From NCBI GenBank assembly GCA_963744515.1, contig CAVUTN010000008.1, positions 22,172 through 86,171 of the forward strand: a stretch of DNA of 64,000 bases. Direction: 5' to 3'. The stretch's first letter is position 1; each line of letters begins with the position of its first letter. Made by a program: the position numbers and the translations under genes. The stretch is from an uncultured Actinomycetes bacterium (lineage in GTDB: Bacteria > Actinomycetota > UBA4738 > HRBIN12). The notes under the pieces were generated by a model. That model saw only the letters and a list, made by a program, of their open reading frames with translations. It did not search any database and had not been told where the DNA came from. Positions 42,054-50,047 of the stretch are shown here, one piece after another.

Positions 42054-43083
<1,030 letters not shown>

Positions 43084-43101
43084 GCCGAAGCCCAGCCGCG
43101 C

Positions 43102-43424
43102 CTAGCCTGCCGCGCCTTGCCGCGGGCGAACCATCCCTTCACCGTGTCGCCCGCGAAGAACCACCCGACCCCGAACGCGATGAAGCCGAACAGCGCGAAC
43201 AGCACGATCGCGAACCCGCGCGTCACCTCGAGGAACCCGACCGTGACGGGCGTCCCGGGCGGGGCCTCGCTGTCGCCGATGTTCGCGATCTCGGTGGCGA
43301 TCCCCCACACGCACACGACGGCGAGGAGCAGGAAGGCGACCCCCAGCACGAACGAGATCCCTTCGACCCAGTCGTGCGCGGCGGTCGCCTCGCTCAGCCG
43401 GCGGCGGAAGGTGCGGTAGGTCAT
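43102..43424 (-). CDS. Two-TM hypothetical membrane protein (end approximate)
   Basis: Hydrophobic segments ISFVLGVAFLLLAVVCVWGI and FAIVLFALFGFIAFGVGWFF; starts 5 nt after the Crp-family stop. Confidence 0.65.
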
Positions 43425-43429
43425 CGCGC

Positions 43430-44136
43430 TCACAGCCCCGCCAGCTTGGCGAGCCCGTTGATCTTCAGCAGGACGAACCGCGGCCGTCGCGCTCGACGAA
43501 GCCGCGGCGCTGGAAGTCGGACAGGATCCGCGTCACGTTCTCTCGGCTGCCCCCGCACAGGCTCGCCAGGTCCGCATGGGTCACGACCGAGGGCACGAGG
43601 AGCGCCGTCCGGCGGGAGCTCGTCGAGCGAGGGTGAGACGAGCTGGAGGAGACGCTTGGCGACCCGGCCCTTCAGATCGAGATAGAGGAGGTCCTCGACG
43701 AAGGCCTCATGTGATTGCACCTGGCGAGCCAGCGCTCGCAGGAGCGCCCTGGAGGCCGACGCCTGCCCGTTGACGAACTCCAGGAACGTCTCCGAGGGCA
43801 CGACCCAGACCGAGGATTCCTCTCGAGACGAGGGCGGACGCGGTTCTCGGCATGTCCCCCAGCACGCCGAGTTCGCCGAAGAACTGTGGGGAGTCCAGGG
43901 TTGCATGGAGCTGTCGTTGCCCGTTCGCAGAGGCCGAGCTGATCTCCACCCGCCCATCTGATCAGGAAGAACACCTCCGGCGAGGGATCTCCCTGATGGA
44001 ACAGGTAGGTGCCGCGCCGGTAGCTCCGGGTGTTTCCCCGCTCCGCCAGTGCGCCGATCACCTCGGGCGGGGTGCCCGCGAACAGGGGCGTGCGCGCCAT
44101 CATCGCCTCGAGCTCGGACGCCACCGCCCTCCCCAT
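43430..44136 (-). CDS. Crp/Fnr family transcriptional regulator (several frameshifts)
   Basis: YLFHQGDPS, FFGELGVLGDMPRTASA cNMP pocket, DLKGRVAKRLL, THADLASLCGGSRENVTRIL HTH. Confidence 0.9.
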
Positions 44137-44182
44137 GGCGCGTAGCCTACCCATGTCACCTCACGGGAGCGACCCGCAGACA

Positions 44183-44216
44183 GAACGAGACCCGGCCCGA
44201 GGGCCGGGTCTCGTTC
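44183..44216 (-). terminator. Perfect 15-bp stem-loop after the Lys-rich peptide gene
   Basis: GAACGAGACCCGGCC-CGAG-GGCCGGGTCTCGTTC. Confidence 0.75.
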
Positions 44217-44221
44217 GAAGG

Positions 44222-44361
44222 TCAGTGGTGACGCCTACTCTGCCCTTCTTCTTGGACTTCTTGAGCCGCTTCAGACTCTTCTTCTCCACGCGGGCTGCCG
44301 TGTCGGTGCTCGACGTCTTCGTCGACGATGCGGCCTTCGGAGTGATCTTCTTGTCCGCCAC
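44222..44361 (-). CDS. Small Lys/Ser/Thr-rich peptide (about 46 aa if one G is restored at ~44243)
   Basis: Strong RBS GGAGGTGA before GTG 44361; MADKKITPKAASSTKTSSTDTAARVEKKSLKRLKKSKKKG; a TGA at 44222 just before the hairpin becomes in frame with a 1-nt homopolymer correction. Confidence 0.65.
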
Positions 44362-44454
44362 CTGATTCACCTCCCCGATCCCCCAGGTCCCATCGGTTCG
44401 GGACATCGGATATTGCATGCCGTGCGCATCATCCTCTCAGGAGGCCGGGGGAAC

Positions 44455-44517
44455 TGTGCTGCGCGTCACGCGTTCTCCCGTGACCCCCGTCACCACATGA
44501 GAGTGACGCACGTCACA
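44455..44517. promoter_or_regulatory. Three tandem Crp-type boxes upstream of the peptide gene
   Basis: TGTGC-N6-TCACG (44455-44470), CGTGA-N6-TCACC (44479-44494), AGTGA-N6-TCACA (44502-44517). Confidence 0.7.
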
Positions 44518-44731
44518 TTTCCTGATCGAGCTCGGGGAGGGCGAGGGGGTCCGGTCGCGGGGAGCAGGCGCCACAGAACAGGGCGTCCTCGACGATGAGG
44601 GCCTGCGTGACGTCACGGGACCGGAAGAGCTCGAGAACGAACGGCAGCGTTTCCACGTGATCGGCGCAGATGCCCCGTCCGCAGAATCGGCAGCTTCCCA
44701 CCGCCGTCTTCCGGCAGTGCCAGCAATCCAT
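44513..44731 (-). CDS. Small Cys-rich zinc-finger protein (B-box-like)
   Basis: MDCWHC...CRFCGRGICADH...FCGAC; RBS AAGGA before ATG. Confidence 0.75.
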   Translation of the reverse strand: MDCWHCRKTAVGSCRFCGRGICADHVETLPFVLELFRSRDVTQALIVEDALFCGACSPRPDPLALPELDQEM

Positions 44732-44752
44732 ACACGGTTCCTTTCGCTCGGC

Positions 44753-46926
44753 TCAGTGCTGCGAGGTTCTGCCTACGGTGACCGCCTGTGCAAGCGAGCC
44801 ACGCCGGAAGGCACCCGCAACGACCTGATCGAATCCCTCTGCGTCGAGCCTGAAGACGCGCGTGGGGGTCCGGGCGATCACGGTCGCGGTCCTGGGCACG
44901 TCCGCGAGCAGTGCGACCTCGCCGAAGTGGCTTCCGGGTCCCAGGGTGTTGACGACCTGCCCGTCACGGATCACCTCGACCTGCCCGGTCCCGATCACGT
45001 AGAAGGCATCACCCGGTTGACCCTGCTCCACGAAGACCTCACCGGGGGCGACGTTCAGCCATCGTCCGTGGTCGAGGATCATGGCGATCTCGGTCGAGCC
45101 GAGTGAGGCGAACGGCGGAAGCCCGCGGAGCTCCGCGGCTTGCTGCAAGCGTCGGCTGGAATTCGGGAACGTGCACCATGTCCGACAGGAGCCGGTCGAA
45201 GGTGCTTTCGTCCACCTCGAACAGCTGCGCATCCGTGGTGGGGCGCACGGTCGCGGCCCGGGGGGCACCGTCGATCAACCCGAGCTCGCCGAACGTGTCG
45301 CCCGGCGCGAGGGTACGGATCACTCGCTCCTTCCCGGTTTCGAGATCCTCCTCGAGGACCTCCAGGCTCCCGGTGCGAACGATGAAGAAGGCATCCGGTC
45401 GATCCCCCTGCCGGAAGACCGGCTTGCCCGCAGGGTACCCCCTCAGGTTCACGCGGCCGGCGATATCCGAGAGCACGTCCTCGGGGAGGTCGTCGAACAT
45501 CGCCGACCGGTCGAGCAGCTCGGCGGCTTCCACACGCCACCGGGTCTGGAGCCGGAAGCGTACCTTGTCGAGGAGGCTCATCACCTTCTTCTTCGCCGCG
45601 CGCGCGAGCGCGATCAGCCCACGCAGGATCGGGCCCGCGATGAACAGTCCGAGCACGACGAGGAGCGCCTTGCCGATGACGCCCCCATCCCACAACTCCC
45701 GGATCAGTCCTCCGAAGATCGTTTCCCAGAAGAAGATCGACGTCCAGAGGCAGAACACCGTGAAGGCGATGCCGACGATCGCGTAGGCGGCCAGGCCGAC
45801 CTCCTGCTTCGTGATGCGCTCCCGTCCCCGGATCTTGCGCCATAGGTCGTAGCGGATGAACTGCAGCGAGCGTGGCCTCAGGTCCGGTACCTGGATCAGA
45901 TCCGCCAGGATGTAGTACCCGTCGAGCTCGAGGAGCGGTACCAGGTTCAGGAAGATCACGAAGTAGTTGATGACCGCCCACGTGAAGAGGAAGGGTGCGG
46001 CCGGCGACTCGGGGAACGCCCAGAGGTAGATCGAAGCGAAGGCCGACACGACGAGTTCCGCGAACGGGCCCGCGGCCGACTGCACGATCCGCTTGCCCCG
46101 GTCCAGCATGAGGGAGTCCGAAGCCTCGACGAAGAAGGCCGGGGACCCGAAGTAGATCATGAAGCCGGCACTCTTGATCTTCCGCCCCTGGTGAACGAGA
46201 ACGACCGCATGACCGAGCTCGTGCACGAACGTCAGGATGTAGTCCATGCCGAGCAGGATCAGCGTCTGGGCCGCGGGAGAGTCGCCCCCGAGATCGAAGC
46301 GATGGCTCTGCGTAGACGGCCACGAACGCCACGAGCCCCAGGACGGCAAGCACGAGCGCGGCGACCGCGACCGCCGGGATGAAGAAGAACCGCAGCCCAT
46401 GACGATAGAGCCAGGCGACGAGCTTGTGGGCTCCCGTCCAGTCGATCGAGAGCGTCTTGGCGAACTCTCGGGCCTTCGTCCTCGCCATCGTCGTGGGATG
46501 GGCCGCTCGCCGGACGATCTCCGTCGTGTCGACGTAATGCTCGGTCAGGAAGTTCCCGATCCGAAGCTGTCGGACCAGATCCACGACCCCGTCGAGCGCG
46601 AGATCGCCGGACTCCTGGAAGGACTCGACGACGATCTCCTTCACGGTCCGGGTCCCGTCCATGAGCGCGAGGAGCCTCGACGTCCTCGGGCCGGAGCTGG
46701 TAGTGCACGAGGTCCGTCGGGTTCGCGATCATGGCGTAGTCGTTGCCCCACCGGAGTTTGAACGCCTTCACCTCGATGTCGTCACGCAGGTGCGGGCGAT
46801 ACTCGGCCGGGTCCACCCGGTTCGCGAGGTCGGACCACAGTCCGCGGCCGTCGTGCTCGCGCGTGTCCCGATCGAGCTTCGCCGCGACGGTCGCGTAGAG
46901 CCTCCTCCGGAGCTGCGAAGGGTCAT
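44753..46926 (-). CDS. PqqD/RRE-like domain + M50 (site-2) metallopeptidase + two cNMP-binding domains (frameshifts near 46900, 46680, 46320, 45130)
   Basis: LLALMDGTRTVKEI (RRE-like), HELGH, AAGPF, NLVPLLELDG, GELGLIDGAPRAATV, GEVALLADVPRTATV. Confidence 0.82.
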
Positions 46927-47623
46927 GTGTCGGAGGCGCGACTCGCGCTCGGCCCGCAGGCGCTGATCGATCGTGCCGTAGAGCGAGAGCCGCGCTGGGG
47001 GCCGGCGCTTGGAAGCGAAGAGATTCCCGATCACGCCGCCGGCAAGGAGCGCGATCAGGATCGCCGCGATCACCGTCTCCCAGGTGATCCCGCCACTCTC
47101 GGGCGCTGCCAGCGACCGGGTGACCTCGGCCGACTCGCCGAAGATCGTCGACGACCCCGAGGACGAACCGAGCATCCTCCGGGATCGTCTTCACCACGTG
47201 CGCATCGACCTCGAAGGAGATGTTGGCCCCACCGGTGGTCACGATCACGTCGGCGCCGCTCACCCGCAGGTACGCGCTCGTCGCCACCGCGCCGGTGCCG
47301 ACGATGAGGTCCTGTTCGCCGACGATCAGCTTGTTGTCCTCGATGTCGAACCGCAGCTGATCGAGCTCCTGGTTCCCGGACATGATCGACGCCTCGAGGA
47401 GGTGGAGCGCCTGCCACCCACCGGGCATCGTCCCGTCGACACGGATCGTGAGCGTCGAGCCCGACGCGAGGGCACCCGACACCTGGCCGTTGACGCTCGG
47501 ACCGCTCGTCGGGCTCGGCGAGGTGGACTGCGCCGAGGCGGGACCCGCGGTCACGATCACCGCCACGAGGGCGGCGAGCAGCAACGACCCCTGCAACGCC
47601 GGTCGACGGATCACGGAGCGCAT
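46923..47623 (-). CDS. Exported protein with C-terminal membrane anchor (frameshift near 47140)
   Basis: Signal peptide ending GPASA, beta-rich core, TM VIAAILIALLAGGVIGNLFA followed by SKRR; ATGA overlap with the M50 gene. Confidence 0.7.
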
Positions 47624-47650
47624 CTTCGACCCGGGGGCGTCGGGACGCAA

Positions 47651-47689
47651 CGTGACGGAGGTCACCCCCCGTCCGTGCGCGACGTCACC
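47651..47689. promoter_or_regulatory. Two tandem Crp-type boxes in a divergent intergenic region
   Basis: CGTGA-N6-TCACC (47651-47666), CGTGC-N6-TCACC (47674-47689), 23 bp apart. Confidence 0.65.
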
Positions 47690-47758
47690 GCTCCTAGCAC
47701 GGACCCGGACGTAGGGTTCGCCGGAGGTTGAGCACCACATCGAGGAGGAGGTGCGGAG

Positions 47759-47929
47759 ATGCTGAGCGGAGAGATGGCCCGGTACCAGATCGGCGACCGC
47801 GTTCGCGAGGCCGAGGCCGACCGCCTTGCCCGGTCGACCCGCAGGAGCAGGGCCGCGGACTCGCGGGGCGTGGCCCGGCGCATCGGTCGTGCCGCCCTGG
47901 CGGCCGCCACCTGGCCCATCAAGCACTAG
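47759..47929 (+). CDS. 56-aa small protein missing from the ORF track
   Basis: RBS GAGGAGGAGG; MLSGEMARYQIGDRVREAEADRLARSTRRSRAADSRGVARRIGRAALAAATWPIKH*. Confidence 0.7.
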   Translation: MLSGEMARYQIGDRVREAEADRLARSTRRSRAADSRGVARRIGRAALAAATWPIKH

Positions 47930-48088
47930 CGTTCACGGCCCGGACATCCACGCGCCTCCGGGCCTTCATGGGCCCCCGATACGTTCCATCCGCCAAGAGA
48001 GAGCGGTTACGCCCCCTCTCGAGAGCGGGGGGTTCGGTCTCCGACCGGGCCCCCCGCGCCCCCCTCCCGCCAAGAAGCCGCGCAACGC

Positions 48089-50047
48089 TCAGGCGCCACC
48101 CGAGGAGAGGTTCTGGATCTCCAACGGCGGCAGGCGATCCGCCGGCTCGAACCCCAGGATCGTGCCGTAGAACGTGAGCTCGGCCGACAGTCCGCGCGAG
48201 ATGTTCTCCACCTTGCGGAACCCGTGCTGCTCGCCTTCGAACAGGAGGTAGGCGTATGGCAACCCCCGGTTCTCCAGGGCCTTGACGATGACCTCCGCCT
48301 GCGCGGGCGGGACCACCTCGTCCTCGTCGCCCTGCAGGATCAGCAGCGGGCTGGACAGGAGCTCGGCGTGCCGGACCGGCGAGCGTTCGGCCCACAGGTC
48401 GGCCGCCTCGGGCCACGGACCCACCAGGAGGTCGAGGTACTTGGACTCGAACTTGTGGGTGGTCTCGGCGAACGGCTCGAGATCCGAGACGCCGAAGTAG
48501 CTCGAGCCCGTCGCGAACGCGTCCCGGAACGTGAGCGCGCACAGCGTCGTCCATCCCCCCGCGCTCCCACCGGAGATCATCAGCCGCTCGGGGTCCGCGA
48601 GACCCCGCTCGACGAGGTGCTCGGCGGCCGCCACCGCGTCGTCGACGTCGGCCACGCCCCACCGGCCGTACAGGCTCTCGCGGAAGGCCCGGCCGTAGCC
48701 GGTGCTGCCGCGGTAGTTCACGTCGACACACGCGATCCCGCGGCTCGTGAAGAACTGCAGCTCGAGGTCCAGCTCCGGCCACACCTCGGACGTCGGTCCC
48801 CCGTGGACGTGCACGAGCAGCGGTGGGCGTTCGCCGTCGGGGGCGGTGGCGACCGCGTTCGTCGGCGGGTAGTAGTGCGCGAACGCGGTCTGGCCCTCGG
48901 TGGTCGGGAACTCGATCGGTTCGGGCACGGACAGGTACCCGGGGTCGAACCCCACAACGTCGTTCGCGCGCAGGACCTCGACCGCGCGCGTCGAGAAGTC
49001 GAGCGACACGACCTGCGTCGGCGTGGTCGGGCCGCCGGCGATGAACGCCAACCGCTGCCCCGAGACGCTGAGGGCCGCCTCGAAGGTCGCGTACGGCAGG
49101 TCCAGATCCAGGAGCTCTCGGGTCGTCGGATCGAGCAGCGCGAGGTGGTGGATGCCCCGCTCGCGGTACGCGCAGACGATCCTCCCGTCCGAGAGGAAGC
49201 CGTACGACGCGTAGCCGAACAGCCACATCGGCACGGCGAACTCGGCCGACATCGGGGCCAGGTTCGTAAGCTCACCGTCGGGCCCCTCCCGGTAGAGGTT
49301 CCACCAGTCGGTGCGATCGGAGACGAAGGTCAACGAGCCGTCGGGCGCCCAAGCCGGTTGGAAGATCGACTCGCGGTCACCGCCCGCGACCGCGCGCGAC
49401 GCGCCCGCCGATCCGTCGGACGCCACGTCGACCACGGCGAGCTCGCTGCCGTCCCAGGGCATCCGCGGGAAGTCCCAGGCGATGAACGCGACTCGCCCGC
49501 CCTCGGGCGACCAACGCGGGAACGCGTAGAAGTCCCGCCCGGATGCGAGCGTCGACGTCGACGATCCGTCGGCGGCGATCGCGACGAGCTCGTTGACGGG
49601 TGGCCCCTGGCCTTCGTGACGTTCGTGGACCGCCGCGATCCACCGGCCGTCGGCCGACACGTCCATATCGGCGTAGCGCAGACCGCGCGGGGTCGCGGGT
49701 TCGGGGGTGATCGCGGTGGGTTCGCCGCCGAGCTCCTGCCGGTACAACCGTTGGTCCTCGAGGTTGGCGAAGTAGGTGGTCGTCCCCCAGACGGCGTACG
49801 AACCGCCGCCGTACTCGTGCACCAGCGTCCGAACCGAGACCCCGGCCGGCGTCACGTCGAACGGCTCCCCGCCCGGATCCGAACGCACGACGACGGAACG
49901 ACCGCGTTCCTGGGGCCGGAGCTCGAGCCACGTGGTCGCGTCGCCGACCGCCCTCGTCTCGCTCAGCACCACCGAGGCCTCCGCGGCGCGATCGGCGGTG
50001 ATCGGCGACGGCCAGGACCCGTACGGGATGCGTTGCGCGTCGCTCAT
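48089..50047 (-). CDS. S9 family (prolyl oligopeptidase/acylaminoacyl) peptidase
   Basis: PYGSWPSPI, HGGPT, NYRGSTGYG, GGSAGG, QGDEDEVV, GEQHGF. Confidence 0.93.
   Translation of the reverse strand: MSDAQRIPYGSWPSPITADRAAEASVVLSETRAVGDATTWLELRPQERGRSVVVRSDPGGEPFDVTPAGVSVRTLVHEYGGGSYAVWGTTTYFANLEDQRLYRQELGGEPTAITPEPATPRGLRYADMDVSADGRWIAAVHERHEGQGPPVNELVAIAADGSSTSTLASGRDFYAFPRWSPEGGRVAFIAWDFPRMPWDGSELAVVDVASDGSAGASRAVAGGDRESIFQPAWAPDGSLTFVSDRTDWWNLYREGPDGELTNLAPMSAEFAVPMWLFGYASYGFLSDGRIVCAYRERGIHHLALLDPTTRELLDLDLPYATFEAALSVSGQRLAFIAGGPTTPTQVVSLDFSTRAVEVLRANDVVGFDPGYLSVPEPIEFPTTEGQTAFAHYYPPTNAVATAPDGERPPLLVHVHGGPTSEVWPELDLELQFFTSRGIACVDVNYRGSTGYGRAFRESLYGRWGVADVDDAVAAAEHLVERGLADPERLMISGGSAGGWTTLCALTFRDAFATGSSYFGVSDLEPFAETTHKFESKYLDLLVGPWPEAADLWAERSPVRHAELLSSPLLILQGDEDEVVPPAQAEVIVKALENRGLPYAYLLFEGEQHGFRKVENISRGLSAELTFYGTILGFEPADRLPPLEIQNLSSGGA

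Follow-up and report, generated by a model that had tools for sequence, protein, structure and literature searches.

A predicted close-packed array of Crp-type boxes ahead of a basic-peptide gene in a soil actinobacterial lineage without a cultured member

What three Crp-type palindromes are doing side by side in 63 bp, between the end of one small gene and the start of another, is the question raised by this locus. The window (the whole stretch of DNA that was analysed, 64,000 nucleotides) has a G+C content of 71%, and its parent genome (G000) amounts to 2.3 Mb in 19 contigs. On the minus strand the order is M50 protease, zinc-ribbon gene, three boxes, peptide gene, hairpin and crp. The genes before the boxes form an operon that encodes an exported protein, a membrane M50-type protease with two cNMP-binding domains (about 46660-44753) and, as its end gene, a zinc-ribbon protein of 72 aa (44513-44731) with a weak DUF2180 match. 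Beyond the boxes lie a Lys/Arg-rich peptide gene (44222-44361, minus strand, GTG start at 44361-44359, MADKKITPK...) and a Crp-family regulator gene (43430-44136, minus strand). The latter is frame-broken here, running over three frames with about four shifts, and the M50/cNMP protease gene is likewise spread over three frames; the orthologs of these genes are intact, those of crp encoding 222 aa. Since the contigs are long, the marker completeness of the genome is nevertheless 58% and the orthologs are unbroken, the disrupted frames are probably due to indel-rich assembly error and not to gene decay. The many frame shifts also make gene calling near other sites of this genome unreliable.

The three 16-bp palindromes (44455-44517) form a predicted Crp-box array before the basic-peptide gene. 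Box A, the distal and strongest one (44502-44517; plus strand AGTGACGCACGTCACA, minus strand TGTGACGTGCGTCACT), scores 20.7 bits, the middle box B (44479-44494; plus CGTGACCCCCGTCACC, minus GGTGACGGGGGTCACG) 17.5 bits, and box C, which is proximal to the promoter and the weakest (44455-44470; plus TGTGCTGCGCGTCACG, minus CGTGACGCGCAGCACA), 14.5 bits. The pitch is 23 bp from A to B and 24 bp from B to C. The original prediction had placed box starts at 44455, 44479 and 44502, spaced 24 and 23 bp, and had counted nine matches out of ten between the 44502 box and TGTGA-N6-TCACA; both descriptions agree with the sequence. When we examined the inverted repeat for the hallmarks of a CRP box, that is GTGA and TCAC cores with 6 bp between them, boxes A and B were found to be perfect GTGA-N6-TCAC sites and box C to have a single core mismatch (GTGC). 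The palindromes are thus of the CRP type, and they stand, as had been claimed, ahead of a peptide gene that adjoins the gene of a Crp-family regulator. The zinc-ribbon gene ends on the minus strand with ...GAA ATG TGA, its stop codon (44515-44513) supplying bases 3-5 of box A. This overlap of box and stop codon, which had also been pointed out beforehand, is real in the window, and about 30 of 74 loci show it too.

Those 74 loci come from a search that began with the zinc-ribbon protein, which was sought in 41 related genomes; 35 of them gave a hit, and the main match was 66-85% identical in 32 of the 35. Eighty further loci were taken from species-representative genomes, and the 74 in which the zinc-ribbon frame was readable make up the locus set counted here. 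Nearly all of the 80 are labelled as uncultured Actinomycetota or Actinomycetes MAGs (three have another phylum label or none), and many were obtained from soil catalogues. Chained boxes follow the zinc-ribbon gene in most members of the set, with at least two boxes in 67 of the 74 loci and at least three in 57. The centre-to-centre spacings across loci are confined to a narrow range, being 24 bp in 96 cases, 23 bp in 36, 22 bp in six and 25 bp in one. From 207 distinct ortholog boxes we derived the family consensus tGTGACGnnCGTCACa, a G+C-rich motif of the form GTGACG-NN-CGTCAC, in which the core positions are 90-100% conserved and the flanks and linkers are near background. The original prediction had made the conservation of the boxes in orthologous loci its point of refutation, and the number, the position and the spacing of the boxes all turn out to be conserved.

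Inverted repeats directly past a stop codon could have another meaning altogether, namely that the palindromes act as RNA 3′ hairpins which stabilise or terminate the zinc-ribbon transcript, or that they are a repeat without any regulatory role. A 5-bp hairpin can be drawn for each box, and the array comes immediately after a stop codon where no other terminator is present. However, conservation concerns the specific bases GTGAC and GTCAC and not the pairing, and in 45 of 56 loci a conserved substitution in the third box disrupts a pair. Rfam gave no match, and the array is unique in its genome, so that we consider this explanation to be scarcely credible. A dispersed or MITE-like repeat element was rejected as a candidate, given that the genome holds one cluster and that the linkers are unconserved.

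The claim that three such sites are unlikely to have arisen by chance also stood up. Single GTGA-N6-TCAC palindromes number 74 in the 2.3-Mb genome. When the whole genome was scanned with a matrix built from the orthologous boxes, a cluster being defined as two to three sites of at least 9 bits each, spaced 22-25 bp apart, the array locus was the sole cluster to be found, and ten genomes simulated with a first-order Markov model contained no box pair in any case. The motif is not restricted to the array. Perfect GTGAC-N4-GTCAC sites occur 5-14 times per relative genome, versus 0-2 times for the reversed control, and the best-scoring sites of the parent genome lie mostly in stretches of weak coding periodicity; with this over-representation and this bias toward non-coding DNA, a regulon for the motif exists. 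One further member is found in the parent genome at 235126-235260 of contig C6, where a perfect TGTGACGTTCGTCACA is kept in four relatives (L101-L104) at the orthologous promoter and sits 28 nt before a TANNNT -10 element (TACACT, TAGACT or TACAAT). Rfam gave no match on the four loci of this site. Starting 9 nt past that -10 element is a conserved mini-ORF with about 22 codons, MRRLQV(S/P)FG..KTG, and it is followed, in the one relative that could be read in frame, by a putative membrane transporter.

The boxes of the array are not equivalent to one another. From the distal to the proximal end, the mean matrix scores of boxes 1 to 4 are 22.9, 18.9, 16.9 and 11.5 bits, where the value of box 1 is biased upward because the first box was picked as the first strong site. 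The perfect GTGAC/GTCAC core is present in the first box of 47 of 56 loci, in the second box of 30 and in the third box of only five, and in 45 of the 56 an A or G stands in the third box where its promoter-proximal half-site should have a T. Such a position-specific defect in the third box is not explained by the choice of the first box. A further idea, that A or G at this place in box C gives rise to a -35 element (GACA), was rejected because it would leave a spacer of 23 nt to the -10 element.

The position of the array relative to the promoter is equally constrained. Of 59 distinct loci, 45 have a hexamer of the form NANNNT 21-22 nt past the third box, whereas the other offsets tested gave 0-6 each; the hexamer reads NANGAT in 36 of the 45. 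When arrays of any box number are considered, 54 of 65 distinct loci have NANNNT 21-22 nt past their last strong box, where base composition alone would lead one to expect about 4%. The arrays of relatives contain two to five strong boxes, the last of which is fixed relative to the -10-like hexamer; since this distance is constant whatever the number of boxes, arrays grow upstream with the last box held in place. In the window the corresponding element is the predicted -10 GATGAT (44428-44433, minus strand), an ortholog-conserved NANNNT 21 nt past box C. On the assumption of a start at about 44421, 7 nt beyond this predicted -10, the centres of boxes C, B and A would fall at about -41.5, -65.5 and -88.5, respectively. 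Given the predicted -10, the nearest box would thus overlap the -35 region at about -41.5, which is a class II-like geometry.

The original prediction had instead taken CAATAT (44415-44410, minus strand) as a putative -10 element and had placed the nearest box at about -60, close to the position for class I activation. Its arithmetic was right, the nearest box C being centred at -59.5 if that hexamer is used, and CAATAT, which has the A of position 2 and the T of position 6, is a fair -10. However, the hexamer is unique to the window, and none of the orthologous loci examined has it at the corresponding place, whereas the hexamer that is conserved keeps a constant 21-22 nt to the last box and puts the nearest box at -41.5, away from a class I position. 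We therefore regard class I activation as very improbable. Nor is the array to be filed as class III. The pitch of 23-24 bp amounts to 2.2-2.3 helical turns in 132 of 139 spacings, which would keep adjacent dimers from sharing a face of the helix, and the 16-bp cores are only 7-8 bp apart.

The peptide promoter itself is peculiar. Its -10-like hexamer begins with G or C and not with the usual T, and no -35-like hexamer is visible. A scan of 43400-45000 with sigma-70 and terminator consensus sequences found nothing; neither the promoter nor the hairpin after the peptide gene fits an E. coli-style consensus. Since the site on contig C6 is followed by a standard TANNNT -10, in contrast to the G/C-first hexamer without a -35 element at the peptide promoter, these sequences hint that the latter is weak and dependent on an activator.

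The predicted 5′ leader of the peptide transcript would comprise about 60 nt (44362-44421, minus strand) and contains CAATAT, a small GC-rich hairpin, GTCCC-N8-GGGAC (44402-44385, minus strand), and the ribosome-binding site GGGGAGGTGA (44376-44367, minus strand). Predicted leaders in 32 orthologous loci are 46-68 nt long (with one of 31 nt), and most have a small GC-rich hairpin; a strong GGAGGTGA is the typical ribosome-binding site. The stem of the leader hairpin differs by clade, being GCCC/GGGC, GGCC/GGCC or GTCCC/GGGAC. Rfam gave no match on 43000-48200, and hence no known riboswitch in the leader.

The 3′ end of the peptide gene is uncertain in the assembly, as the frame reads through the terminator hairpin; the orthologs stop after 40-51 codons. 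No family model in Pfam or NCBIfam was found for the peptide, and a profile search returned only metagenome proteins, all of them annotated as hypothetical. One locus (L009) has two tandem basic-peptide genes after its array. A candidate relative of the peptide is CrsL, a small disordered actinobacterial transcription factor (PMC12709188). The gene is followed by a GC-rich hairpin with an 11-bp stem (44187-44212, minus strand), which has a weak T-tract and was not called by the terminator scan. Equivalent hairpins are situated 3′ of the peptide stop codon in orthologs, and the hairpin is likely, judging from its sequence and placement, to be an intrinsic terminator that parts the peptide transcript from crp.

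The crp gene has a -10-like element of its own, TAGGCT (44149-44144), which precedes the ATG at 44136 by 7 nt. In relatives, TACGCT or TACCCT stands 5-10 nt ahead of the crp ATG. The presence of this element near the ATG, together with the preceding terminator-like hairpin, suggests that crp is transcribed separately as a nearly leaderless mRNA whose start codon would lie 18 nt further downstream than the first ATG in the open frame. We did not find a Crp box directly before the crp gene.

Which protein would occupy the boxes can be addressed through the intact orthologs of this regulator. The ortholog of locus L096 (4638-5303, 222 aa) contains the domains cNMP_binding (PF00027), HTH_Crp_2 (PF13545) and Crp (PF00325), and its best relatives of solved structure, both matching over the full length, are GlxR (4cyd, 3.7e-30) and M. 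tuberculosis Crp (3h3u, 8.7e-28). Its recognition helix, SRENVTR, aligns with SRETVNK of GlxR and keeps R-E-x3-R; in E. coli CRP it is the Arg-Glu...Arg of this helix that reads GTGA. The ortholog of the adjacent gene therefore combines a cNMP domain, a Crp-type HTH and the R-E...R residues expected of the cognate regulator of a CRP box. The gene also travels with the array, since crp is downstream of it in 65 of the 74 loci, which is nearly all of those with enough sequence. Of the 60 loci whose downstream sequence is long enough, 51 have array, peptide gene and adjacent crp together, and two loci without the array are also without the peptide and crp. On account of this synteny, the adjacent Crp-family regulator, encoded about 200 bp downstream, is most likely the protein that would bind the array.

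A second Crp-family paralog is encoded elsewhere in the genome (contig C2, 311126-311689), with a recognition helix of the same type (SRESVNR) and an equally close match to GlxR (6e-30). It could occupy the boxes in place of the adjacent regulator or in addition to it. The boxes might accordingly be bound mainly by another protein, for which this paralog, as a global regulator, is the candidate, the adjacent regulator having its target elsewhere. Crp paralogs are known in mycobacteria, where Crp1 of M. smegmatis has been named (PMC12709188). The joint occurrence of array, peptide gene and adjacent crp, and their joint absence from two loci, nevertheless make binding by the paralog quite unlikely in our view.

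If the adjacent regulator is the binder, its ligand may be a cyclic nucleotide other than cAMP. In the alignment the ortholog retains the GE...RS phosphate-ribose pocket, but the pair of C-helix residues is Q-E in the ortholog and H-E in the window (at about 43700), in place of the T-N of GlxR; it is this replacement that leads us to think of another ligand. The corresponding residues in the C-helix of E. coli CRP are T127-S128. The density of class III cyclases in the lineage seems unusually high, as PF00211 domains number 16-46 per genome of 2-3 Mb in 12 of the 13 genomes searched, which were the incomplete parent genome, with 28 matches, and 12 relatives (the remaining one had a single match). 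Such a set of enzymes would provide for the supply of a cyclic-nucleotide signal.

A second predicted Crp site, composed of two boxes (47651-47689, minus strand), heads the upstream operon. Its weak box, GGTGACGTCGCGCACG (47689-47674, minus strand), is 23 bp from its strong box, GGTGACCTCCGTCACG (47666-47651, minus strand), which abuts a -35-like TTGCGT (47650-47645). This hexamer is followed by 17 nt, a -10-like GAAGAT (47627-47622), 7 nt and a GTG at 47614, which would make the mRNA of the exported protein leaderless. The layout of two boxes, TTGCGT and GAAGAT is conserved in 38 fetched loci. With both sites placed, each of the cassette's two transcription units would have the motif at around -42 to -44, and since the same kind of two-box site stands at the head of the upstream operon, the whole locus would answer to the same signal.

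Taken as a whole, it is on balance probable that Crp first takes the strong distal box, extends from there cooperatively over the weaker ones and turns on the promoter from -41.5, a scheme in which we infer which protein binds, that it binds cooperatively, where transcription starts, in which sense it is regulated and what the ligand is. The ligand-bound regulator would occupy box A first, and box B and then the weak box C would be filled cooperatively, as adjacent dimers at a pitch of 23-24 bp would almost touch. The dimer at C would contact RNA polymerase in the fashion of class II CRP activators, so that box C would stand in for the missing -35 element of a weak promoter with the -10 GATGAT, and the peptide gene would be turned on with a sharp threshold. 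Both ingredients have precedents, as tandem Crp sites with assisted occupation have been described for M. tuberculosis whiB1 (PMC2844151), and, for DevR, a strong box that nucleates binding, after which weak tandem boxes are filled cooperatively (PMC3177182).

The same arrangement could, however, be read with the opposite sign, the array being a cooperative operator through which the Crp-family regulator represses by covering the -35 region, so that the peptide would be made only at low signal. We keep repression as a rival because of whiB1, where CRP2 at -37.5, beside an upstream Crp site, represses, and where the authors argued that abutting dimers deny space to the alpha C-terminal domain of the polymerase (PMC2844151). 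Repressors typically use multi-site cooperative arrays, and one clade has a fourth half-site, GGTGAC, between the -35 and -10 positions, with its centre near -18.5. On the other hand, every strong box is upstream of or over the -35 position and none covers the -10 or the start in the window, and a promoter without a recognisable -35 and with a non-consensus -10 looks activator-dependent. The distance to the hexamer, fixed within 1 bp in 54 of 65 loci, fits contact with the polymerase, and in M. tuberculosis Crp bound upstream is associated with activation and Crp bound near the start with repression (PMC4117774). Repression thus appears to us rather unlikely, and activation from box C the better reading.

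The array would offer a compact model, tractable in vitro, for the threshold response of a Crp-family regulator. It would also give a first regulatory handle on a cassette centred on cyclic nucleotides (M50/cNMP protease, zinc-ribbon protein, basic peptide and Crp), whose host is a soil actinobacterial lineage without a cultured member and with unusually many nucleotide cyclases.

Crp sites and tandem Crp promoters are themselves well known. To our knowledge, an abutting row of Crp sites with a fixed pitch of 23-24 bp, a gradient of affinity and a last site predicted at -41.5 has not been described previously. We can only tentatively suggest, as a possibility, that close-packed arrays are an undescribed design, with two to five strong boxes at this pitch, a strong nucleating site at the far upstream end and ever weaker sites down to -41.5, in which Crp polymerises toward RNA polymerase and thereby converts a graded level of cyclic nucleotide into a sharp on-switch. 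If so, the switch would here control a polycationic peptide in a cyclase-rich lineage. The closest solved relative of the adjacent regulator, C. glutamicum GlxR (4cyd, 3r6s), has a recognition helix of the same type and differs in the nucleobase-facing pair of its C-helix, T-N versus Q-E or H-E here. We know of no GlxR promoter with a multi-site array of 23-24 bp pitch.

CRP promoters of classes II and III resemble the predicted layout of the array in having a palindrome of the TGTGA-N6-TCACA type at -41.5 that replaces the -35 element, with extra sites upstream. In class III promoters, however, the upstream sites are on the same face (-61.5, -71.5, -82.5, -92.5) and leave room for the alpha C-terminal domain, whereas those of the array abut one another, at predicted positions of -65.5 and -88.5, and have a G+C-rich consensus.

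The whiB1 promoter, with CRP1 at -58.5 and CRP2 at -37.5 (Stapleton et al. 2010, PMC2844151), comes closer. It also involves an actinobacterial Crp of the GlxR/Rv3676 type and directly adjacent sites, of which the stronger lies upstream and the weaker near -35, and there too the strong site aids occupation of the weak site, the output depending on the levels of regulator and ligand (PMC2844151). In contrast to the array, which has three sites in the window and two to five strong ones in relatives at 23-24 bp, whiB1 has two that are 21 bp apart on the same helical face, its proximal site is at -37.5 as opposed to the predicted -41.5, and its target is unlike the basic peptide of 40-50 aa encoded next to crp.

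The Dev boxes of DevR (DosR) share the principle of the proposed switch, since binding is nucleated at one conserved box and extends cooperatively to neighbouring boxes of poor conservation (Chauhan et al. 2011, PMC3177182). Tandem spacing is essential there, and the number of boxes varies by promoter (PMC3177182). DevR is a response regulator of the NarL/LuxR type with another motif, and it offers an analogy of design and not a relative of the system described here.
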